Under the pieces are notes generated by a model. It worked only from the letters and a program-made list of their open reading frames with translations. It had not been told where the DNA came from and searched no databases. DNA of 64,000 nucleotides from an uncultured Gammaproteobacteria bacterium (GTDB taxonomy: Bacteria; Patescibacteriota; Patescibacteriia; Magasanikbacterales; GWA2-37-8). Positions 276-55,894 of this stretch are shown one piece after another. The stretch lies in NCBI GenBank assembly GCA_964533715.1, contig CAZHNI010000002.1:46496-110495 (forward strand), read 5' to 3'. Positions within the stretch are counted from its first letter, which is position 1; each line of letters begins with the position of its first letter. The position numbers and the translations under genes were made by a program.

Positions 276-1121
276 ATGTCGGCAAGAAGCTTCGTGCGAA
301 TGCTGAAAGCGCAGTGGGTGCTGCGGAAGTTCGTCTGCGTCGGGCTCGATCCCGATCCGAGCAAGATCCCCGGCTACACCGAGCAGGCGGGGACCATGGC
401 GGTCCGCGGGTTCCTCGAGGAGATCATCCTGAGCACCCACGACCTCGTGGGCGCCTACAAGCCGAACCTGGCGTTCTTCGAGCAGTTCGGCCCCGAGGGT
501 CTCCAGCTTCTGGTCGAGATCTGTCAGCACATCCGGTCGGTGTGCCCGCAGGTTCCCATCATCCTCGACGCCAAGCGCGGTGACATCGGGAACACCAACG
601 AGGGGTATGCCCGCTTCCTGTTCGATCGGTGCTGCGGCGACGCGGTCACCGTCCACCCGTACCTGGGGCAGGAGGCGCTCGCGCCGTTCCTCGCCCGCAA
701 GGACAAGGGCGTCTTTGTCCTCTGCCGGACCTCGAACCCAGGCGCGGGCGAGTTCCAGGATTTTCTCGGTCCGGACGGCACGCCGCTGTACCTGCGCGTC
801 GCCAGGAACGTGGCCACGAGCTGGAACGCGAACAACAACTGCGGCCTGGTCACCGGCGCCACCTATCCCATCGAGATCGCGGCGGTGCGCGAGGTAGCGC
901 CGAACCTGCCGCTCCTCATCCCGGGCGTCGGCAAGCAGGGCGGCGATCTGGAGTCGGCCGTGAAGGCGGCCCTGGCCGCCGACGGCGAGGGCAACTTCCT
1001 GGTCAACGCCTCGCGCGACATTCTGTACGCCTCGAAGGGCGACGACTACGCCCGGGCGGCACGGGCTGCCACGCTGCGGCTCCACGGCGAGATCATCCGG
1101 CACCTCGGGCTCACGGACTGA
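276..1121 (+). CDS. pyrF: Orotidine 5'-phosphate decarboxylase, type 2 (long, actinobacterial-like form)
   Basis: Motifs GLDPDP, KPNLAFFE, ILDAKRGDIGNT, VTVHPYLG, VFVLCRTSNP and LIPGVGKQGG line up with type-2 OMP decarboxylases. AGGAGG sits 5 nt upstream of the ATG at 276 (the listed ORF starts at an in-frame GTG at 270). The gene is markedly GC-rich compared with its flanks. Confidence 0.85.
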   Translation: MSARSFVRMLKAQWVLRKFVCVGLDPDPSKIPGYTEQAGTMAVRGFLEEIILSTHDLVGAYKPNLAFFEQFGPEGLQLLVEICQHIRSVCPQVPIILDAKRGDIGNTNEGYARFLFDRCCGDAVTVHPYLGQEALAPFLARKDKGVFVLCRTSNPGAGEFQDFLGPDGTPLYLRVARNVATSWNANNNCGLVTGATYPIEIAAVREVAPNLPLLIPGVGKQGGDLESAVKAALAADGEGNFLVNASRDILYASKGDDYARAARAATLRLHGEIIRHLGLTD

Positions 1122-3096: not shown

Positions 3097-4242
3097 ATGA
3101 CAGGATCAGGCAATAATAGGCATGGTGGTATTATAACAGAAGTTTTACAAAGGGAGACAGAAAGAACCCAACCCGACATGGCTCACAAAAAAATTGAGGA
3201 AGCAAAGAAACTTTTTATATCCATGGGTTTAGAGGTGAGCGGCGGTGGGTTTATTTCAAATAATATTTCGCCAAAAAAATTGGCAGAACTTCACGAGTGG
3301 CACGAATCGACGAGAGGGAAGGGAGGTATTGATATGCCAACAGAAGACTCTTTTTATGAAAAAGTTTATCTCGCCGTTTCTTTGTGGCCCCAAAGGGAAG
3401 ATACAAAAATAAACTATTTGTTAGGAAAGGGAGTTGGGGTGGAGGTTGCACTGAGGGGAACAGTTGTTGGAAGAGAAAAAAGGAAAATTGTTTTTCCTTA
3501 TCGGACACATTCCGACTTTGAATTGTACGGAGTTGACTATGAAAATGAAACATCTGAACAAACACCAAGTCTAGCTAAGCCGGTTTATACTCCAGGATTT
3601 AAGCAGGTATTTGGAGCCCAGGAGTATTATCCGCCAACCAAAACAAAAGGTCTTAAAGATATACCTCCTGGGCTACTGTATAAGACTGCCGAATCAGTAG
3701 ATTTAGGTGGAGTGCGAGTGCTTGTTCCAAAATTAGAATTACTATTTTTAGATAAATGGATGGCTCAAGAAACAACACCTAGAGCAGAAGGCAATGACGC
3801 TGAATTATTGGCCAGGCAATATAGTCTCGACAAGGATGAATTGCACGAATATTTGCAAAGATTTGTGGTTGAACCACGAATAAAATCAGTAGAGGCTGAC
3901 GGGAAAGTTTTATCAACCAGACATCTAAGCAATATAGAAAGATATCTGATAATCAAAATGAAAAGTATTGAAGAACCAACAAAAGAAAATATGGTTGCTT
4001 CTCTAAATACAGAAATAGCGCAATATTTATCTATTGATCCAAATGTAAGCATATCTGGGATTAGCGGAAAGTTGTGGATTCCTTTGTCGGCAGACCAAAT
4101 TGATGAGGGTGGTAAGTTAATTGATCAGTCTTATATAGATGAAGTAAATCGTAAAGTTGAAACTCAAACCAAAGTAAAAATAGAAAAAATCAATAATTTT
4201 CACACTGATCTAGATAAATTCTTGAGTCGTGTTGCTGATTGA
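3097..4242 (+). CDS. Hypothetical protein (381 aa; no recognisable domain; start could be the internal Met at 3178)
   Basis: Long ORF with native low-GC composition. No family-level motif recognised. Confidence 0.6.
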   Translation: MTGSGNNRHGGIITEVLQRETERTQPDMAHKKIEEAKKLFISMGLEVSGGGFISNNISPKKLAELHEWHESTRGKGGIDMPTEDSFYEKVYLAVSLWPQREDTKINYLLGKGVGVEVALRGTVVGREKRKIVFPYRTHSDFELYGVDYENETSEQTPSLAKPVYTPGFKQVFGAQEYYPPTKTKGLKDIPPGLLYKTAESVDLGGVRVLVPKLELLFLDKWMAQETTPRAEGNDAELLARQYSLDKDELHEYLQRFVVEPRIKSVEADGKVLSTRHLSNIERYLIIKMKSIEEPTKENMVASLNTEIAQYLSIDPNVSISGISGKLWIPLSADQIDEGGKLIDQSYIDEVNRKVETQTKVKIEKINNFHTDLDKFLSRVAD

Positions 4243-4450
4243 AGCTCATTTTATTTCTTTATACAACCCAGTGAGTTTGTTAAAAACTAATTCCGGAGTA
4301 CAAGTTACTAAAATCAACCCATCTTGATTTCATTAACTTTTAAAAAACAACCCTATCACTTTTATCACAATGTATTATGGTAAAAGTGACAGATCGGGTG
4401 GTTTTAATTCCCGAGCTATCATCGGGAGTTGATGCGGACGCCTCGGTGAC

Positions 4451-5059
4451 TTACTTGGGTGAGTGGACGGAGTGGTAGAGGGGGTGGCCGTAGACCGGAT
4501 AGCTGCCGGTCCCTTCGGCGGAGCAGGACGCGTAGCCGCCCCACTCGATGTAGAGGGCCGCGCCTGGGGGTGCCTCGTTCCAGTTCGTGCACACCACCTG
4601 GAAAGGAATCAGCTTGTCCTTTTCCAGGTGAAGCGGCGTGCTGCCTGGCATCCAGTAGCCAGAGTTGGGGCCGATTTGCTCGCCGATGGTGTCCCCCCCG
4701 CCGTAGCCAATTTCTCCGGTGGGGACTCCGTTCAGCCAGACCTCGATCCGGGGCACCCAGTTGCTGCGTTCATAGCCGAGCCACAGGGACACACCCTCAA
4801 GGTTGATCGGCTGGCAGTCGGCGCTGTCAGCGGCGTGCATGGCGCCGTTGATCAGCACCGCGACCGACTGAGACGCCGGCACCTCATCCGGCGGAGGGGT
4901 GGCCGGCTCAAAGACCGGGAAGCCCGGCACGATCATGTACTTGGCCGTCAGGGTGTACCCCGGGCGGGTTTCGGACAGCACCGGACCGCACTGTGGCTCC
5001 GGCCGATCGGCACCGCAACTAGCCGCGAGCAGCAGAGACAAAACAACCAGTTGGCGCAT
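4451..5059 (-). CDS. High-GC lipoprotein of unknown function
   Basis: Lipobox LLLAASCGA. RBS GAAAGGAAG 6 nt upstream of the ATG. GC-rich codon usage unlike the flanks. The antisense ORFs 4459-4806 and 4463-5110 are judged spurious. Confidence 0.7.
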   Translation of the reverse strand: MRQLVVLSLLLAASCGADRPEPQCGPVLSETRPGYTLTAKYMIVPGFPVFEPATPPPDEVPASQSVAVLINGAMHAADSADCQPINLEGVSLWLGYERSNWVPRIEVWLNGVPTGEIGYGGGDTIGEQIGPNSGYWMPGSTPLHLEKDKLIPFQVVCTNWNEAPPGAALYIEWGGYASCSAEGTGSYPVYGHPLYHSVHSPK

Positions 5060-5206
5060 CGGACACTTCCTTTCTTGTTTTTTAAGGAGCTACCCACTTC
5101 AGCCCCATAGAGCACGCTCTCCTTTGAGATGCTCAGGTGAGGCTTAAATGTTAGTATGTGATGTGTATCAAAGCATATTATTATAAGATGCGTCAATTGG
5201 CAAACC

Positions 5207-5375
5207 CCTTAAGCTTTGAATTACGAAACACCCATTTTGTCATCCTGAACCCCGCTCAAGCGGGGTGAAGGATCTCTGTCCGGTTGTTAACTTGGCCAAC
5301 GTTGGCCAATTAAGACAGAGATTCTTCGCTCTGCTCAGAATGACAGTTGAGTTTCGTAACTCAAAGCCCTTAAGG
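5207..5375. repeat. ~170-bp imperfect palindromic (MITE-like) element, copy A
   Basis: Outer inverted repeat CCTTAAGCTTTGAATTACGAAAC / GTTTCGTAACTCAAAGCCCTTAAGG. Inner termini TTGTCATCCTGA / TCAGAATGACAGTT. Internal hairpin CCCCGCTCAAGCGGGG. Central perfect palindrome TTGGCCAACGTTGGCCAA. Homologous to the element at 22173-22330. Confidence 0.55.
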
Positions 5376-5421
5376 GTCATAATAATAGCGTTTATCTAAA
5401 AAATATGCTAAAATATTACAC

Positions 5422-6618
5422 ATGTATAATCAGCCAGTTGCGCCAGAGAAAGTAGACCGCCCGGTGGTGCTCCACCAGGGCGTGTATAAACAAACCGCCA
5501 CTACCGCCGAGGCGGTGTTTATGATTACCGGCATGACCATTGGAGCCGGTATTTTGGGTATACCGTATGTTGTTGCCAAAGTGGGAATTTTAATTGGGCT
5601 CACGTATATAGTAATTCTTGGTCTTATCATGTTATTTTTAAATATCATGATAAGCGAAGTAGCGGGGCGGACCGGGGAGAATTTGCAGTTGCCAGGTTTA
5701 GCGGGCAAGTATTTAGGCCCGCGAGCTAAAGAAATTTTGTCTATTTCTACTGTGGTAAGTGCGGTGGGCGCGCTGCTTGCTTATATTATTGGTGAGGGCA
5801 AAGCTTTGAGCGCGCTTCTTGGAGGCAATTCTGATGTGTGGAGTGTTATTTTTTGGTCGGTAGGGAGTGGTCTTATATTAGCTGGCCTCCACCGCGTTAA
5901 AGTCGCAGAAAAAATTTTAAGTGCTTTGGTTATTGGCTGTATTACTTTTTTGTCGCTGTACTTATTACCACATATTTCGGTAAGTAATTTGACTCATTTT
6001 GACCCCAAAAATATTTTATTACCGTATGGCGTTATTTTATTTGCGCTCCACGGCACACCGGCTATCGCCGAAGCGCGGGCACTACTTAGTAATGATCGCC
6101 GCCGTTTTCGTAAAGCCGTTATTATTGGCACCTTAATTCCAATTGCGGTCTATATTCTATTTGCTCTTAGCGTGGTAGGGGCGAGTGGTCTTACTACTAC
6201 CGAAGTGGCCTCGGTCGGCCTCGGAGCCCGATTTGGTGGTTTTGTGTTGATTTTAGCCAATGTGTTTGCAGTGTTTGCTATGAGCACCGGTTTTATGGGG
6301 CTTGGTACGGCGCTGAAGGAAGTATTGGTGTGGGACCACAAACTGCCCAAATGGCTCGCCCAAAGCTTGGTCATTGGTATTCCTATTTTGTTATTTTTGG
6401 CGGGCTTTAATAATTTTGTTAATATTTTAGGTATTATCGGTGGCGTTTTTATAGGGCTTGAAGCAATTATAATGATTATGGTATATTGGCAGGCACGAAC
6501 CACCGGTCTATTTGCCCGTTCCCGGTCGGGCGCTCACCATATGTGGTTTCTGAGTGTGCCGCTTCTGGTGGTTTTTATGTTTATAACCATGCATAGTATT
6601 TTTAAATTATTAAATTAA
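5422..6618 (+). CDS. Amino-acid permease (about 11 TM helices; aromatic amino-acid / HAAAP-type transporter family-like)
   Basis: Polytopic membrane protein of 398 aa. The N-terminal GMTIGAGILGIPY motif is typical of Trp/Tyr-permease-like transporters. Confidence 0.55.
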   Translation: MYNQPVAPEKVDRPVVLHQGVYKQTATTAEAVFMITGMTIGAGILGIPYVVAKVGILIGLTYIVILGLIMLFLNIMISEVAGRTGENLQLPGLAGKYLGPRAKEILSISTVVSAVGALLAYIIGEGKALSALLGGNSDVWSVIFWSVGSGLILAGLHRVKVAEKILSALVIGCITFLSLYLLPHISVSNLTHFDPKNILLPYGVILFALHGTPAIAEARALLSNDRRRFRKAVIIGTLIPIAVYILFALSVVGASGLTTTEVASVGLGARFGGFVLILANVFAVFAMSTGFMGLGTALKEVLVWDHKLPKWLAQSLVIGIPILLFLAGFNNFVNILGIIGGVFIGLEAIIMIMVYWQARTTGLFARSRSGAHHMWFLSVPLLVVFMFITMHSIFKLLN

Positions 6619-6626
6619 AGTGGTGT

Positions 6627-6690
6627 TCGTCCCGATTTCGCTTCGGCGAAATCGAGGATCCTCGATTTTCCTCCACAGGAAAATCGGGAT
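6627..6690 (+). promoter_or_regulatory. Structured element in the metK 5' leader with mutually exclusive hairpins
   Basis: Three elements read directly: CGATTTCGC-TTCG-GCGAAATCG (9 bp, UUCG tetraloop), the palindrome GAGGATCCTC, and CGATTTTCC-tccacag-GGAAAATCG. An alternative long-range pairing CCCGATTT / AAATCGGG is also possible. GGTGTTCG is repeated at 6623 and 6703. Confidence 0.35.
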
Positions 6691-6798
6691 TGTTATTCAG
6701 TTGATGGTGTTCGTTGTTGGTTGGTTTACCATTTCGTGGTCGATCGAGCGGGTTACTTATCAACAACGTCCTTCTATCCCAAATTAAATATTCATATT

Positions 6799-7953
6799 AT
6801 GTCAAATTCATATTTATTTACTTCGGAGTCCGTTACGGAAGGTCACCCAGATAAAATTTGTGATCAAATTTCCGATGCGGTGCTCGACAGTCTTTTGGAT
6901 CAAGACCCCAATTCACATGTGGCAGTGGAATGTTTTACTACTACCGGGCTTGTAATTGTGGGTGGTGAGGTAACCACCAAAGGGTATGTGGATGTGCAAA
7001 AAATTACCCGTGCAGTTTTGGATGATATTGGGTATACCGACCCAGCGTATGGCATTGATGCTGAACACGCCGGTATTTTAGTTTCAATCCACGAACAGTC
7101 ACCTGATATTGCCCAGGGGGTAAACAGAACCAGTGTGGAAGATCAGGGCGCGGGCGACCAGGGGCTTATGTTTGGTTACGCCTGTAACGAAACTCCAGAA
7201 TTAATGCCACTCCCAATAACTTTGGCACATCGTTTGGCCGAGCAGCTGGCTAACGTGCGTAAAAGTGGCGAATTGCCATATTTACGTCCAGACGGCAAGA
7301 CACAAGTGGCGGTTGTGTATGAAAATAATAAACCGGTTAGACTTGAGAATGTGGTAGTGGCGGCGCAGCATCATGACACGGTAACGCTTGAACAAATTAG
7401 AAAAGATATTATTGAGCATGTTATAGAGCCAATATGCAGCCATTATATTGACGACAAAACCCAGTTTTTTATAAATATGACCGGAAAATTTGTGGTGGGT
7501 GGGCCGCAAGGCGATACTGGTTTAACTGGCCGTAAAATTATTGTGGATACCTATGGCGGCATGGGTCGGCACGGCGGTGGTTGTTTTTCTGGTAAAGATC
7601 CAAGTAAAGTGGATCGTTCTGGTGCCTATATGGCTCGCTATGTTGCCAAAAATATTGTGGCCGCCGGGTTGGCCGAGCGCTGTGAAGTACAAGTCTCTTA
7701 TGTAATTGGTCGCGCTGAGCCTACCAGTATTAACGTTAATTCTTTTGGCACATCAAAAGCGGGCGACGACAAGCTAATTGAGGCAGTTAAAAAAGTTTTT
7801 GATTTTCGTCCCGGTAAAATTATTGAAGCGTTGGATTTGCTTCGTCCCATATATCGAGCCACGGCGGCATATGGACATTTTGGTAGAGCGGAATTTCCGT
7901 GGGAAAAAATAGATAAAGTAGAAGCTCTTAAAGCACAGGTTGGAAACAAATAA
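6799..7953 (+). CDS. metK: S-adenosylmethionine synthetase
   Basis: Motifs [30 protein letters not shown] and [19 protein letters not shown]. The real start is the ATG at 6799 ([19 protein letters not shown]); the listed 5' extension from 6721 is non-coding leader. Confidence 0.92.
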
Positions 7954-7966
7954 TAAAATAATAAAA

Positions 7967-7995
7967 AACATCGGTTTAAAGCCGGTGTTTTTTTG
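7967..7995. terminator. Intrinsic terminator (8-bp stem AACATCGG / CCGGTGTT plus T7). Likely bidirectional, with an A-run on its 5' side.
   Basis: Hairpin with a 7-nt loop followed by TTTTTTT, between the convergent metK and the minus-strand gene ending at 8006. Confidence 0.6.
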
Positions 7996-8005
7996 TTCTA
8001 ATTTT

Positions 8006-9745
8006 TTATGGGGCGCTAACGGCGGCACCAAATTTGGCTCCACGATCGTCCGATGCTAGCTGATTAGAAAGGGCAGGGAGTTTAGTGTCAAAAATTTTGC
8101 CTACTACAGTGTCTTCTGCATGTACGGTTATTTCTTTTGTTATGGATAGAATGTTGCCAATTTGCTGTGGGGAAGGCGAGACGGAAACCTCAAAATATAA
8201 CCCGGTTTGGCTTTGGGCGGGCAGTTCTCTAAAATTCCAGTGTACCGTTCTAGTGTCTGCGGAATAGGTGAGCTCGGGGCCGATAGTAACGCTTTGTTTG
8301 CCGGTAAAGGCAACCCCGGGAGCAAGCGGGATGTTTACTGAAACATTGTCTACGGCGTTAACGGTGTTATTTAATGTAAGGAAAATCCAGTATTTAGTAG
8401 TTTCGCCAACGCGTGGTGGCAATGGGCCACGACCAAGCTGGTCGCCTTCAGCGGTGTAATAACGAATTTCATTTTTTCCGGAAAAATCTGTAGCCATTTG
8501 TATACTGAGAGGAGCGCTAGACTGCTTAAGCAATTGTCCAGAAACAAGTTCCGTTGATGCCTCCCAGGTAGGAGAGACGGTAAGTTGGTTGTTCGTCGGG
8601 TCGGAAGAGGCAAAGTTTTTTGCCAGTTGCAGGTTAATTATAAAATCATCTGTGGCGCCAGGTTTTGGTGCAGTTAAGGCGGTGCGTGCAAGATTATTAA
8701 TAATTAAATCTTCATGATCAACGGTGAGACGGTTATTTTTGGCTGTGGCAATTAGGTTTACCGCATGCGTGTTAAAGTGGAGACGGATTTGAGCGTTTGA
8801 AAATGCGAATGAGCTGTTATTGCGCCAGGTTATGTGGAGAGGTAATTCATCGCCGCTGTTTATAAAGGGTGGAGAGGTAGGAAAATCGGTGGTCAAATTT
8901 ACTTCTGGCTTAATAAGGGATATGCTTTGAGTATTTCTACCGAGTGGAATTGGTTGTTTGCCAACGGTGATAGTTGGAACCACTTGCGCGTTAAAGGTGG
9001 TCGCTGAAGTTGGAATAGTAAGTGTGCCGGTAAATGTTTTTGTTTCGCCTCCTTTAAGGAAAATATTTTCAAATTTTTCTTTTTCAAGGGTGCTTTGTTT
9101 CCAGTTAGTAACAATCGAAATATTTGGTACGTCGGTTGATCTTGAGTTAAAAATACTAATAGTATACGGGAGTGGTTGGTTGGGGAAAGAGGACGAAGCG
9201 GAGGAAAAAGAGGAAACCACTATACTCGCAGGTAATTCAACGAGCGTGGAGCTTAATTTTTGCTCGGTGCTAGTGTGCCCATCGGCACGATATGAAAGCG
9301 TGCCTATAATTTTTATTTCGGAGTTAGGAGTTGTCCATAGTATACCGGGGAGAACAACGCTACCCTTAGCCCCGGGTTTAATGTCGGGAAGAGTAAATCC
9401 GTTTTCTGCTGAAAAAGTTGAAGATGAAATTGTACTATAGTCAATTATAAAACCCGGAGGGAGCCGCAGTGTGATAGCGGCTTGATGAAGGGTAAATTTA
9501 TTTCGGTTGGTATATGTTGCGGACAGTTCAACTCGTTCGCCACTTTTTATGCGCGAGGTGCCGAGAGAGATTGAAAAATCAACGAGGCCGGTTGTGCCCG
9601 GTTTCCAAAAGAAGAAAAAAATGCTGGCGCCGAAAAAGGCGATGGCCAATCCAAGAAGCACGAGATCGAACACAAACAATTGCTGGGCATGTTGATAAAT
9701 ACCATGATATCGTTTGTGGTATAATTTGTGAAAAAAAGAGGTCAC
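8006..9745 (-). CDS. N-terminally membrane-anchored extracytoplasmic protein of unknown function (579 aa, Thr/Ser/Asn-rich beta-type domains)
   Basis: Single N-terminal TM helix (LVLLGLAIAFFGASIFFFFW) followed by a large hydrophilic, low-complexity beta-rich region. Confidence 0.6.
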   Translation of the reverse strand: MTSFFHKLYHKRYHGIYQHAQQLFVFDLVLLGLAIAFFGASIFFFFWKPGTTGLVDFSISLGTSRIKSGERVELSATYTNRNKFTLHQAAITLRLPPGFIIDYSTISSSTFSAENGFTLPDIKPGAKGSVVLPGILWTTPNSEIKIIGTLSYRADGHTSTEQKLSSTLVELPASIVVSSFSSASSSFPNQPLPYTISIFNSRSTDVPNISIVTNWKQSTLEKEKFENIFLKGGETKTFTGTLTIPTSATTFNAQVVPTITVGKQPIPLGRNTQSISLIKPEVNLTTDFPTSPPFINSGDELPLHITWRNNSSFAFSNAQIRLHFNTHAVNLIATAKNNRLTVDHEDLIINNLARTALTAPKPGATDDFIINLQLAKNFASSDPTNNQLTVSPTWEASTELVSGQLLKQSSAPLSIQMATDFSGKNEIRYYTAEGDQLGRGPLPPRVGETTKYWIFLTLNNTVNAVDNVSVNIPLAPGVAFTGKQSVTIGPELTYSADTRTVHWNFRELPAQSQTGLYFEVSVSPSPQQIGNILSITKEITVHAEDTVVGKIFDTKLPALSNQLASDDRGAKFGAAVSAP

Positions 9746-19960: not shown

Positions 19961-20746
19961 ATGTACCAGCAGATCATCCGCATCGCCGCCCTCGTCTTCG
20001 CGCTTTTCGTCCTCAACTCCGCCCCGGCCTCGGCCAAGAAGCCGGCCCCGGTCGCCGAGATCGAGAGTCCCGACCTCTCCCTCGCGAAGGTCCGTTTCAA
20101 GACCGGCGAAAAGAAGTACGAGGCCGAGGACTACGCCGGCGCCCTCAAGGAGTTCGAGGGCGCGAAGTTCCTGCAGCCCAAGCGCATCGAGCTCGATTAC
20201 AACATCGCGCGCTGCCACGATCGGCTGGGCAACTGGGAGCAGGCGGTGAAGTTCTACACCGCCTACGCCGACACGAAGCCGAAGGACGAGAAGGAGGTGA
20301 GGGAGCGTATCGCGATCCTCAAGGAGAGGCTCGCGGCGAAGCCCCTCACCACCCCCGCCGTTGCCGGCACCCAGCCCGCTCCGCCCGCCCTGGCTCCCGC
20401 CCCCGCGACGCGGACTGACGGTGGCGTCACGCCCGCGGCTCCCGCCACCCCCTACGCCGGCAGCAAGCCGAACCTCAACCTGCCGGCCCCCGCCCCGGCC
20501 CCGCCCGCCGCGACTGTCCCGCTCGTTCCGACGACCCAGCCCGTGGCCCCCACGTCGACCAGCCCGCCCTTCTACAAGAAGTGGTGGTTCTGGACGGCCG
20601 TGGGCGCCGCCGCGCTCGTCGCGGTCGGCGTCGGCATCGGCGTCGGAGCTTCGCGGGAAACCACCTATTCCCAGACCCGCCCGGACCTGGGGACCGTTCA
20701 CTTCAACCTCAACCTCTTTCCCACCCCCGACACGGGGGGGAGGTGA
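19961..20746 (+). CDS. High-GC secreted TPR-like / proline-rich protein with a C-terminal TM helix
   Basis: RBS GGAGGAGG. Signal peptide IAALVFALFVLNSAPASA. Long Pro/Ala-rich linker. TM helix WWFWTAVGAAALVAVGVGIGVG. GC-rich. Confidence 0.65.
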   Translation: MYQQIIRIAALVFALFVLNSAPASAKKPAPVAEIESPDLSLAKVRFKTGEKKYEAEDYAGALKEFEGAKFLQPKRIELDYNIARCHDRLGNWEQAVKFYTAYADTKPKDEKEVRERIAILKERLAAKPLTTPAVAGTQPAPPALAPAPATRTDGGVTPAAPATPYAGSKPNLNLPAPAPAPPAATVPLVPTTQPVAPTSTSPPFYKKWWFWTAVGAAALVAVGVGIGVGASRETTYSQTRPDLGTVHFNLNLFPTPDTGGR

Positions 20747-20749
20747 CCC

Positions 20750-22006
20750 ATGCGCCAGACCCTCTTCGCCTTGATGGTCGCCGCCCTCCTCGCGGGGTGC
20801 GGCGCCGACATGCGCCCGTGCCCCAAGGGCGCGGTCCGTATCCACATGCAGTTCGACCAGGTCGTCCGTGATCGTGGGTACGCCGTCACGGCGACCCTCA
20901 CGATCGATGGGGTGTCGGTCCAGACCCCCTTCGACCCCAGCATCAACGGGGATGCGGAAGGGAATATGGACTTCGTCTTCACCCATGGCTACCCGGCGAT
21001 CGGTGCAGAGGCGCAGATCGACCTGGTCGTGCGTCGCAACAGCGACATCGTCGGCGAGGGGCACGCAACCTTCGAGATCACCGAAGGGTGCACCTACGTC
21101 GTCGTCCCGGTGACCGCTTCGGTGGCACCTGAGGACGGCGGCACTGATCTCGCGCGGCTCGACGGCGGCGCTGACCTGTCTCGGCCGGACCTCGCCAGTG
21201 GCGACGGTTCGGTCGACCAGGCCACCCCGCCTGACCTCACGACGCCCCCCGACCTGACGCGCCCCCCCGGCGACCTCACCGTTCCGCCCCCTGACCTCAC
21301 CGTCGCGGGGGACATGGCGCGGCTCCCGGACGCGGCCCTCCCCGACCTGACCACCGCCCCGCCTGACCTCACGACGCCCCCCGACCTGACGCGCCCCCCG
21401 GACCTCGTGGCCACGCCCGATCTGGTTCTCGCCTGCAATCTCGACGCCGACTGTGGCAGCAAGACCGGTGGTGCCTGCAAGAACGGCACCTGCCAGCCCC
21501 CTGCATGCACCGACGGCCTCAAGAACCAGGACGAGACTGACGTCGACTGCGGCGGCGCCAAGTGCGTGCCGTGCGTGCCCACCAAGGCGTGTATCAAGGA
21601 CGCCGATTGCATCATTCCGTGGTGCAACCCCAGCACCAAGAGGTGCGGCAACATGGTCGGTACGGTCTTCATCGGATCGGAGGGCGAGAAAATTGACCTG
21701 AACAACCCGGCGAACAACCCGCCGCCCGTGTGGAGCTGCCTCGACGCCTGCGCCAAGAAGTTCGGTGCCGGTACCTACCGCTGCTCCACCGTGCTCGGCT
21801 CCGTCAACGGGCTGAGCTGGTCGCAGTGCTACGGCGACGGGCAGCACTGCTCCCCTGGTGGAGAGGTGTCCGAGAGCTACAAACTCGGCACCACCTACTA
21901 CTGCCCAGGGGCGCCGGGCTGCGCCTGCTCGGCGTGGGTCGACTACCAGAACAGCGGTGGTTCGGCCTGCGCCAACGCGGGCGCCAAGTCCTACTGCTTC
22001 AAGTAG
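20750..22006 (+). CDS. High-GC lipoprotein with PPDLT(T/R)P repeats and a Cys-rich C-terminal domain
   Basis: Lipobox LLAGCGA. RBS GGGAGG overlaps the upstream stop. Repeated TPPDLTTPPDLTRPP. About 30 Cys in the C-terminal 190 aa (CxxGxCxxxxC patterns). The antisense ORF 19874-22150 is rejected. Confidence 0.7.
   Translation: MRQTLFALMVAALLAGCGADMRPCPKGAVRIHMQFDQVVRDRGYAVTATLTIDGVSVQTPFDPSINGDAEGNMDFVFTHGYPAIGAEAQIDLVVRRNSDIVGEGHATFEITEGCTYVVVPVTASVAPEDGGTDLARLDGGADLSRPDLASGDGSVDQATPPDLTTPPDLTRPPGDLTVPPPDLTVAGDMARLPDAALPDLTTAPPDLTTPPDLTRPPDLVATPDLVLACNLDADCGSKTGGACKNGTCQPPACTDGLKNQDETDVDCGGAKCVPCVPTKACIKDADCIIPWCNPSTKRCGNMVGTVFIGSEGEKIDLNNPANNPPPVWSCLDACAKKFGAGTYRCSTVLGSVNGLSWSQCYGDGQHCSPGGEVSESYKLGTTYYCPGAPGCACSAWVDYQNSGGSACANAGAKSYCFK
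21226..21398 (+). repeat. Two copies of a ~43-bp direct repeat (CCCCGCCTGACCTCACGACGCCCCCCGACCTGACGCGCCCCCC) encoding the PPDLTTPPDLTRPP motif
   Basis: Identical DNA blocks at 21226-21268 and 21356-21398. Confidence 0.6.
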
Positions 22007-54061: not shown

Positions 54062-54898
54062 TTAGCGAATTAATAATAAAAGTCCCAAGATAAGGCAAAC
54101 TCCTAGGATTAGTTTTTTTAAAATGTGCTCTTCCCCAAAATATAATTTACCAGAGATTACGGCTAGCACTAATGCTGAGGCACGTATAGCAGATAAAATT
54201 ATGGCAGCAGGTGCGAATTTATAAGCAAAGCTTGTTAGAATTGCTGCTCCAACTTGGGTGCTGGATTGAATTAAAAAAAGTGGTTTAAATAAATTATACG
54301 AAAAATTCTGTTGTTTCTTCAGAAATGTGCCAATAAAAAAATAAATTGTTAACCCACCATACGCTATAGTTTGTTCTGCAATTACAGAATTAAAGTGAGT
54401 AATATTATATTTATATAAAGAAATAGTGCATGCCGCATTAATAGCCGAAATAATAATAAGGCCCGCTCCTGTACGGCTAAATTCTTGTTTAATAAAAGCG
54501 ATTATAAGCGCCAGTAGGATTAAAATAATGCCCATTATTTGTCGATTAGATATAGAATATCCTAGCGTTAAGTCTATAATTAGAACAAGAGGGATGGCTG
54601 TGCTGCGTAGAAAACTAAACGTACTGCGATCACTTTTAACAAGCGCTAAAATTGCTAAATGTGCCTGGGTGATTTCTAAAATTAAGCGAATTGCTACAAA
54701 TGGCAGGGAAGCGGCAACAAAGACAAAACCGCCGGGTTGGATTATTGCTAAAAGTATGAAAACAGCAAGTGTCGCCGAGTTTTGGATAAACCCAAGCGTG
54801 TAGATACTTTCTCGGCCGGCTGCTACTGCCCATTTCCCAATAGAACCGGATAATTCATCGCCGAGTGATCCGAGAGCTGCAAGTAAAACTCCAAACAT
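54062..54898 (-). CDS. DMT-superfamily (EamA-like) membrane transporter
   Basis: 278 aa, about 10 TM helices, with a two-repeat architecture. Confidence 0.55.
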   Translation of the reverse strand: MFGVLLAALGSLGDELSGSIGKWAVAAGRESIYTLGFIQNSATLAVFILLAIIQPGGFVFVAASLPFVAIRLILEITQAHLAILALVKSDRSTFSFLRSTAIPLVLIIDLTLGYSISNRQIMGIILILLALIIAFIKQEFSRTGAGLIIISAINAACTISLYKYNITHFNSVIAEQTIAYGGLTIYFFIGTFLKKQQNFSYNLFKPLFLIQSSTQVGAAILTSFAYKFAPAAIILSAIRASALVLAVISGKLYFGEEHILKKLILGVCLILGLLLLIR

Positions 54899-55057: not shown

Positions 55058-55894
55058 CTAGAAGATCTGGAGGTCGAGGAGGGCGCGGAGCGCCAGGGCG
55101 CGGCACATGTTGCCGCCCTTGGTCTGCATCCGCACCACCCGGTTCAGCGTCTGGAAGGCGCCGGCCGGGTTGTCGAGTCGGAGCTGGGCCTTGGCCGCGA
55201 AGAGGAGCGCGGTCCCGATGGCGTCCCCGTACTCGCCGGTGAGCGCGGTCGCCTCGGCGATCTCGATGGCGCTGGTGAAGTCGCCGGCGTCGTAGAGCCT
55301 GGCCACCTGGGCCATCATCCAGAACGGGCGGAACAGGTCGTGGTAGCGGTTGTCGGCCGCCTCCATCGCCTGCATCGCCGCCAGGTACGACGAGCGGCCC
55401 TGGTACTGGTTGATGTTGGCGAGCATGCTCGCCTCGACGACGTGGGCCGGGATGTTCCCCTCGACCCACTCGAGCGCACGAGGGGACTCGTCGCCCGCGA
55501 GCGCCTGCTGCGCCACTGCGGCGGCGGCGGCGAGCCGGTTGAAGGTGTGGCCCAGCTCGTCGCCCCTGACCACGGCGTTGTTGAACGCCGAGACCGTGGC
55601 GAGGAACGCCTCGATCGCGTAGCTGGTGTCGGTCTCGCGCGTTGCCGGGGGCGAGCGGTACTGCTCGGCGGCCAGCAGGTGCAGGTTGATCAGCGCACCG
55701 TAGCCGCCGCCGTCGCGCGTCATGATGCGGGCGTTGTAGCCGGCGCGGAGCGCGAGCGCCGTGCGCTCGACCCCGTCCGGCAGCTCCGCGATCTCCGCCA
55801 TGACCTCACGCAGGAGGACGGCGGCTTCCCCGAATCCCTCGTTGGTCTGGCGCAGCGCGTACACCCGGTCGATTTTTTTTCCGATTTCTTCCAT
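55058..55894 (-). CDS. High-GC all-helical hypothetical protein (278 aa)
   Basis: RBS AAGGAGGG 8 nt upstream of the ATG at 55894 (MEEIGKKIDRVY). GC-rich throughout. The plus-strand antisense ORFs 55340-55939 and 55000-55242 are judged spurious. Confidence 0.6.
   Translation of the reverse strand: MEEIGKKIDRVYALRQTNEGFGEAAVLLREVMAEIAELPDGVERTALALRAGYNARIMTRDGGGYGALINLHLLAAEQYRSPPATRETDTSYAIEAFLATVSAFNNAVVRGDELGHTFNRLAAAAAVAQQALAGDESPRALEWVEGNIPAHVVEASMLANINQYQGRSSYLAAMQAMEAADNRYHDLFRPFWMMAQVARLYDAGDFTSAIEIAEATALTGEYGDAIGTALLFAAKAQLRLDNPAGAFQTLNRVVRMQTKGGNMCRALALRALLDLQIF

Follow-up and report, generated by a model that had tools for sequence, protein, structure and literature searches.

What lies in front of metK, the gene for S-adenosylmethionine (SAM) synthetase, in the 64-kb stretch of contig CAZHNI010000002.1 analyzed here (the window), and does it regulate the gene? 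A 180-nt spacer separates metK from an amino-acid permease gene on the same strand, and an earlier note on this DNA had drawn attention to its stable hairpins, a palindrome, and a short repeat, proposing a divergent or novel cis-regulator while allowing that the region might be just the terminator of the permease gene. The identification of the downstream gene as metK is borne out by its protein domains (Table 1), and the window genome is of the Magasanikbacteria type within the Patescibacteria, with a MetK 77-88% identical to proteins labelled Candidatus Magasanikbacteria. The spacer is a composite of a hairpin insertion and a conserved RNA element. It is very probable that the element, at positions 6703-6778, acts in cis on metK as a conserved, structured regulatory RNA, and we hold with the same high confidence the combined description of such an RNA plus a non-conserved hairpin insertion. 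That the element is a SAM-responsive riboswitch is put forward far more tentatively, as a possibility with a little less than an even chance of being correct.

Fourteen distinct Patescibacteria loci have the motif 5' of metK and on its strand (the window, L001, L017, L081, L083, L085, L126, L127, and L130-L135), and the MetK proteins of the 13 motif-bearing relatives are 66-88% identical to that of the window. Related metK loci were drawn from a genome scan with MetK, which was swamped by universal MetK peptides and yielded only L001, L002, L017, and L069 as useful loci, and from contigs encoding twelve of the closest MetK proteins. The spacer sequence flanking the motif is not alignable among loci. 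For the motif itself, a 14-sequence alignment (A7) was prepared from which an optional stem, P3, was excised in six rows, because MAFFT applied to the full-length motifs misaligned the 3' strands of P1 across it. Standard pairs are formed in 93.6% of the 266 pair cells of this alignment, eight pairs show double-sided change, and the covariation score was reached by none of 500 shuffles, while sliding the structure by 1-3 columns leaves only 37-65% paired. RNAalifold, which was not given the structure, returns the same helices, P2a included, and single-sequence minimum free energy folds have the same architecture in most of the 14, P1 being missing in L017, L085, and L130.

A covariance model built from the P3-excised alignment, which does not span P3 cleanly, scores the instances at 39-75 bits on the + strand and at 16 bits or less on the - strand, and G.U pairs dominate two columns in which the opposite strand would give A.C; the strand of the motif is therefore fixed. 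Scanned with filters off, the window holds one match, and the next best scores 13 bits. Among 96 sources the model matches only the known instances, and it found no match in 66 non-Patescibacteria metK loci. The sequence pattern ATGGTGTT-7 N-GG also recovers all local instances of the motif. Matches to the pattern in viral contigs (L125) and, with 8 N rather than 7, in 38 metagenome loci (L087-L124) were rejected as chance matches in coding DNA.

The conserved RNA consists of variable helices arranged around nearly constant unpaired segments (Table 1), of which UGUU, UCCUU, and UUACU are nearly invariant across the 14 sequences. P1 changes from U-A to C-G at position 3 and from G.U to G-C or A-U at position 4, and five pairs of P2a are changed on both sides, giving combinations such as GUUGUUG/CAACAAC, UUUGCCG/CGGCAAA, GUUGCGG/CCGCAAC, and GUUAUCG/CGAUAAC. 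A 3x3 internal loop separates P2a from helix S, and G6709 of J1/2 could pair with the invariant C6771 of J2/1. When each of the 14 instances is folded by itself, a different stem occupies the position of P2b, and the stems of both P2b and P3 differ in sequence and length among loci, with short forms of 59-60 nt (L126 and L131-L134) dispensing with P2b altogether. Where it occurs, in six relatives, P3 is a perfect, sequence-unrelated hairpin between J2/1 and the 3' strand of P1, and these six also have a longer P1, GAAGAUGG/CUAUCUUC. Two further structural candidates were discarded, namely, additional pairs linking P2a to helix S (23-65 and 24-64), which are only 60.7% paired, and, as a general feature, a pseudoknot of the CC of J2/1 with the GG of the UGGUCGAU loop, as L085, L017, and L135 have no GG in the loop.

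Table 1. Coordinates of features in and around the permease-metK spacer of the window
Feature	Position	Strand	Details
Trp/Tyr-type amino-acid permease gene (Trp_Tyr_perm / Aa_trans)	5422..6618	+	Pfam PF03222, E 9e-20
Upstream junction copy TTATTAAATTAAAG-TGGTGTTCGT	6607..6630	+	Perfect 10-mer at 6621-6630
Putative lineage-specific inserted cassette (hairpins A and B)	6631..6691	+	Absent from 13 related leaders; unique in the window
Hairpin A, arms CGATTTCGC/GCGAAATCG	6633-6641/6646-6654	+	9 bp, TTCG loop; extended 6629-6659
Perfect 20-nt palindrome AAATCGAGGA/TCCTCGATTT	6649-6668		Contains GAGGATCCTC
Hairpin B, arms CGATTTTCCT/AGGAAAATCG	6663-6672/6677-6686	+	10 bp, CCAC loop; extendable to 12 bp, 6661-6688
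Outer complementarity, TCCCGATTT with AAATCGGGA	6630-6638 with 6681-6689		Part of 22-nt arms
Downstream junction copy TTATTCAGTTGA-TGGTGTTCGT	6692..6714	+	10-mer 6705-6714 within P1, J1/2, P2a
Conserved metK-leader RNA motif (candidate riboswitch aptamer), 76 nt	6703..6778	+	Covariance-model match, 73.4 bits, E 4e-17
P1 5' strand, GAUGG	6703..6707	+	Pairs with 6774-6778; 95.7% of cells paired
J1/2, UGUU	6708..6711	+	U and G invariant (14/14)
P2a 5' strand, CGUUGUUG	6712..6719	+	Pairs with 6761-6768; 8 bp, 99.1% of cells paired
Helix S 5' strand, GGU	6723..6725	+	Pairs with ACU 6755-6757; 95.2% paired; GAU/AUU in L001
Variable apex P2b, stems ACC/GGU and UUCG/CGAG, loop UGGUCGAU	6726..6754	+	Length and sequence vary by locus
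Helix S 3' strand, ACU	6755..6757	+	Preceded by invariant UU of conserved UUACU
P2a 3' strand, CAACAACG	6761..6768	+
J2/1, UCCUU	6769..6773	+	Pyrimidine-rich, nearly invariant; optional P3 follows in six relatives, none in the window
P1 3' strand, CUAUC	6774..6778	+	Ends 20 nt before the metK ATG
metK (S-adenosylmethionine synthetase), ATG to stop	6799..7953	+	Three S-AdoMet synthetase domains (Pfam), E 1e-42 to 1e-69
Canonical intrinsic terminator after metK, bidirectional	7963..7993	+	14-bp stem, then TTTTTT tail

In the window, the gathering score was not reached for any family of Rfam 15, and no Rfam 15 match overlaps the motif, even at E<=10, in the window region 6450-6950, in L001, or in ten further loci. 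The families covered by this negative scan are SAM-I, SAM-II, SAM-III, SAM-IV, SAM-V, SAM-VI, SAM-I/IV, SAM/SAH, SAH (S-adenosylhomocysteine), and SAM-Chlorobi. As positive controls, the same search found SAM-I at the equivalent position, 150-450 nt 5' of metK, in five Bacillota loci (L003, L004, L007, L018, and L022), and RNase P RNA and tRNAs in Patescibacteria loci. The available portions of the literature on riboswitches in Patescibacteria, Parcubacteria, or the candidate phyla radiation, or on metK motifs, contain no account of this element. The authors of a 2015 genome survey of Parcubacteria reported that the Rfam model of the riboflavin (FMN) riboswitch gave no match.

The position of the motif relative to promoters is also informative. 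In four of the six relatives scanned (L017, L130, L131, and L133), P1 is preceded at a distance of 7-30 nt by a strong sigma-70-like promoter-like site (10-11 of 12 positions; 2822-2850 in L017). Three of these four sites have the TG of an extended -10, and similar sites can be seen by eye in L083, L126, and L134. As these sites lie directly 5' of P1, the motif would therefore begin the metK transcript. In L133, a bacterial RNase P RNA (positions 1407-1823, - strand, 152 bits) lies on the opposite strand directly 5' of the promoter-like site, which accounts for the long "intergenic" region of that locus. Downstream of the motif, L017 has a canonical terminator before the ATG (hairpin at 2976-2995), with a U-tract ending 4 nt before the metK start codon, and in L130 and L134 this interval contains an AU-rich hairpin and then a U-tract, while in the window, L126, L131, and L085 only 20-23 unstructured nt lie between P1 and the ATG. 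The metK gene of the window has no Shine-Dalgarno (SD) sequence, and the genome is largely without them, SD sequences being present at 11 of the 52 long open reading frames (ORFs) of the window, about half of those 11 in or beside GC-rich islands. Given this scarcity, SD sequestration is unavailable as a mechanism.

What, then, of the hairpins that first called attention to the spacer? The features described in the earlier note are all present and go beyond chance, with a folding energy of -34.9 kcal/mol for the 70-nt block of hairpins (z = -5.9, 0/200 shuffles) and a fold z of -4.9 for the whole metK leader. However, the hairpin cassette is absent from the closest relatives, L081 (by alignment) and L135, and from all other leaders. 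The distance from the permease stop codon to the conserved GATGGTGTTCGTTGTTGG is 8 nt in L081 and 16 nt in L135, and compared with these two the window has an extra segment containing both hairpins. The proposal of a novel cis-regulator thus stands for 6703-6778, where the comparison of related metK leaders finds a conserved, covarying RNA in 14 metK loci with no Rfam match, but not for the hairpins, palindrome, and pairing cited in its favor, all of which fall in the non-conserved insertion. The mutually exclusive long-range pairing claimed for the leader survives only as a complementarity between the outer arms, as the outer-stem fold (-27.6 kcal/mol) is 7.3 kcal/mol worse than the two-hairpin fold, and the ensemble probability of the outer stem is about 1.6e-4, compared with about 0.99 for each separate hairpin. 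Nor does the repeated GGTGTTCG motif appear to be regulatory. Judging from the sequence comparison, it is probably an insertion scar, a duplicated junction whose downstream copy serves as the 5' end of the conserved element; positions 6621 and 6705 are the only two at which TGGTGTTCGT is found, and the perfect 10-mer has an imperfect extension to about 24 nt, a score reached by 1 of 500 shuffles.

With regard to a possible mobile origin, the cassette has inverted ends CCCGATTT/AAATCGGG and a flanking duplication, the right copy of which does not abut the right inverted end. A miniature inverted-repeat transposable element (MITE)-like insertion would be expected in multiple copies, but the cassette is single in the 64 kb; both hairpin sequences have no second copy there at up to 3 mismatches, and no match to the cassette or its palindrome was found in viral contigs. 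No promoter-like site occurs near 6690, the nearest on the + strand (6458-6487) being inside the permease gene. The cassette appears to be a recent, lineage-specific acquisition and not the metK regulator, and at most it may provide the permease gene with an acquired terminator or insulator.

The conserved element, by comparison, shows the general marks of a riboswitch, combining covarying helices and conserved unpaired bases with a consistent 5' position before metK (14/14). Its association with metK only, its place at the 5' end of the transcript, and its variable covarying helices around near-invariant unpaired bases make the pattern that of a riboswitch aptamer, as do the optional stem and the conditional-looking terminators in some members. 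From this pattern we infer a ligand, a direction of regulation, and an expression platform. Sensors of SAM are classically found in metK leaders, which makes SAM the most economical choice of ligand; moreover, in the solved SAM riboswitches uracil carbonyls contact the sulfonium, so that U-rich pockets suit SAM recognition. Under the mechanism that we propose, 6703-6778 would form the 5' leader of metK, a rod-like or three-way RNA transcribed, in relatives, from the promoter immediately 5' of it; the leader would bind SAM, the product of MetK, and metK expression would be lowered when SAM is plentiful. In L017, L130, and L134, where a hairpin and U-tract precede the ATG, control would be exerted by transcription termination. 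In the window, ligand-stabilized P1 and J2/1 may instead hide a pyrimidine-rich single strand 20-30 nt 5' of the AUG that would act as a ribosome landing site, a speculative form of translational control suggested because there is neither a terminator nor use of SD sequences. Taken as a whole, a composite spacer with a new class of riboswitch that senses SAM and lowers metK expression is nearly as likely to be right as wrong. Slightly less secure is the more specific proposal of a new class confined to the Patescibacteria (Magasanikbacteria and neighbors) that senses SAM, SAH, or methionine through an SD-independent platform, unlike those of SAM-III, SAM-VI, and SAM/SAH.

A number of observations weigh against a riboswitch of this kind. 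The motif is not universal, being missing from L002 (where the spacer is 18 nt), L069, and L128. There are only 14 sequences, all from related organisms, and part of the covariation counts reflects shared ancestry; the C-G variant of P1 may have arisen only once. A usable alignment required the removal of P3 from six sequences and was guided by our own segmentation, and association with genes other than metK was judged from the approximately 175 kb of Patescibacteria DNA that the motif search covered. Most instances, that of the window included, have neither a terminator nor a ribosome-binding site (RBS) to sequester, and constrained folding of L130, L134, L017, L083, L001, and L081 yielded no convincing antiterminator or switching structure. 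The architecture is also simple, and what is essentially a single irregular hairpin with a 5-bp P1 at its base would suit a protein-binding site too. Accordingly, the main rival, although an unlikely one, is that 6703-6778 is a leader read by a protein or other trans-acting factor, whether an RNA-binding repressor, MetK itself, an RNase III-type activity for which it would be a processing or stability site, or a small RNA (sRNA) for which it would be the target. The rod-like shape and conserved internal loops would fit such a role, as would the lack of a recognizable expression platform or switching partner and the UGGUCGAU loop, with its self-complementary UCGA, which is found in many but not all instances. 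However, the metK leaders of other phyla typically hold SAM-binding RNAs, both SAM-I, as found here, and other classes; near-invariant unpaired bases, variable covarying helices, and an optional stem are the usual signature of a riboswitch; and no candidate regulator gene is linked to metK in the conserved neighborhood.

The remaining alternatives are much less likely. The promoter-like sites directly 5' of the motif, together with the terminator-like hairpins that follow it in L017, L130, and L134, could be taken to mean that it is an independent sRNA, or a 5' stability or processing element, that has its own promoter and merely adjoins metK, but we consider this improbable. The motif is always on the metK strand, the terminator of L017 runs almost to the start codon with no second promoter seen, and the window, L126, L131, and L085 have no terminator in the short interval before the ATG; moreover, the order of promoter, structured RNA, conditional terminator, and gene is the layout of an attenuating riboswitch. 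It is more doubtful still that the whole 180-nt region is the intrinsic terminator of the permease gene with no role in metK expression. Both hairpins are very stable, and hairpin B, in its 12-bp form with 5 G-C pairs and the tail ATTGTTATTC, passes a loose terminator scan, so this part of the suggestion in the earlier note may hold for hairpin B. But none of the related loci has these hairpins, the tail falls well short of the TTTTTT of the genome's own metK terminator, and a terminator cannot explain the conserved, covarying RNA at 6703-6778, for which this account is largely refuted. Least credible of all is a leader peptide (MV[FL]VVGW...) translated from an AUG inside P1, with ribosome stalling controlling metK. 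AUGGUG is present in 9 of the 14 instances, and the window has a corresponding ORF at 6704-6787, but in the other five the AUG is ACG, the frame is only six codons long in L001 and continues into metK in L017, and compensatory changes in the 3' arms preserve the pairing at the expense of the putative peptide sequence. With the start codon missing from five instances and the frames and ORF lengths inconsistent, such an attenuator is effectively refuted.

With respect to the wider locus, the permease-metK arrangement is kept in relatives, and a permease gene also precedes metK in L081, L085, L126, L127, L130, L132, L134, and L135. Synteny is common to the window (3097-9745) and L081, L083, L126, L131, L132, L134, and L135, and comprises the permease, metK, and a convergent gene for a protein of ~580 amino acids with DUF11/CLIPPER-type repeats, with a Beta_propel or beta-lactamase gene sometimes inserted; in the window, the terminator after metK separates it from this convergent DUF11-containing gene. 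A tRNA gene lies directly 5' of the permease-metK pair in L001 (1229-1302), L081 (1060-1133), L127 (1026-1099), L130 (407-480), and L132 (466-539). No tRNA gene was found in the window by Rfam or ARAGORN, and the matching position is occupied by a GC-rich ORF and a palindromic MITE-like element of about 155-170 nt, formed by nested inverted repeats 5' of the permease gene (5213-5229/5351-5367 and 5259-5280/5314-5335). A look-alike of this element, with GTAACTCAAA-type ends, fills the motif-less metK leader of L128 (2304-2465), and in the motif-less L128 and L129 a gene with a SAM_HAT_C domain (SAM hydroxide adenosyltransferase-like; L128 1357-2208) lies directly 5' of metK. GC-rich islands, with up to 0.69 GC compared with roughly 0.40 elsewhere, are found in the window at 276-1121 (+), 4451-5059 (-), 19961-22006 (+), and 55058-55894 (-). 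Their ORFs, which have strong GGAGG SD sites, whereas native genes mostly have none, encode an orotidine 5'-monophosphate decarboxylase in one island and a TPR protein in another, and the islands could reflect horizontal transfer or chimeric assembly.

Two further observations concern SAM and MetK more generally. A 278-amino-acid protein encoded at 54065-54898 (-) has a weak EamA/DMT-transporter match, below the Pfam threshold, to a superfamily that includes known SAM transporters. This EamA-like protein could be relevant to SAM supply, and the covariance model of the motif found no match 5' of its gene. Metagenome-assembled genomes labelled as DPANN archaea (Woesearchaeota and Nanoarchaeota; L013, L016, L034, and L054) encode a bacterial-type MetK 62-64% identical to that of the window, which suggests inter-domain transfer or mis-binning, and the model found no match in these four loci.

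A clade-specific metK leader RNA would be notable in its own right as a rare documented regulatory RNA for a huge uncultivated group, for which the portion of the literature available holds few reports of riboswitches. If it does bind SAM, it would add a further independent fold to the best-known case of convergent ligand recognition by RNA, and as these genomes are mostly without SD sequences, the element could show how a riboswitch acts on SD-independent initiation. The 59-nt short forms (L131-L134; positions 1919-1977 in L131) would be convenient for structural work and possibly for genetic tools in Patescibacteria, a group for which researchers seek inducible systems (PMC11665869). The locus also illustrates that eye-catching perfect hairpins can be the non-conserved part of a leader, with the real element in the plain-looking sequence beside them.

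Among known systems, the closest in position is SAM-I (S-box, RF00162), which classically senses the product of MetK for feedback control and likewise occupies the metK 5' leader on the same strand, downstream of a promoter. SAM-I is, however, built as a four-way junction of roughly 110 nt that includes a kink-turn and a pseudoknot, whereas the RNA described here is an irregular hairpin of 59-100 nt closed by P1, with an optional third stem, and has no match to RF00162 or its clan at E<=10; for none of the other classes compared here was there a covariance-model match either. SAM-III (SMK box, RF01767) and SAM-VI (RF02885) are small, lineage-restricted, and found almost only before metK, and in these the SD sequence pairs with an anti-SD segment around bound SAM. 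The present element falls in a similar size range, and its pyrimidine-rich UCCUU strand resembles an anti-SD segment, but metK and most genes here have no SD sequence. SAM/SAH (RF01727) is similarly small, metK-restricted, and confined to one bacterial lineage. It folds as a hairpin with a 14-nt, almost invariant loop that pairs with an RBS-containing 3' tail in an H-type pseudoknot (PMC6411933). In the present motif, by contrast, the conserved bases are in internal loops, the terminal loop varies in length and sequence, and no RBS is found near metK.

The element is equal in evidential status to SAM-Chlorobi (RF01724), a lineage-specific, conserved RNA-like motif of metK and ahcY leaders, for which, to our knowledge, ligand binding has never been shown, although the two differ in sequence and structure. 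In architecture, an analogy can be drawn with THF-II (folE motif) and the xanthine riboswitch (NMT1 motif), in which a single extended hairpin before one type of gene forms its binding pocket from conserved internal-loop bases; the likeness is one of analogy only, as their sequences, ligands, and gene contexts are unrelated to those described here. The conserved RNA upstream of metK is best filed as a new structural class among metK leader RNAs and riboswitch candidates.

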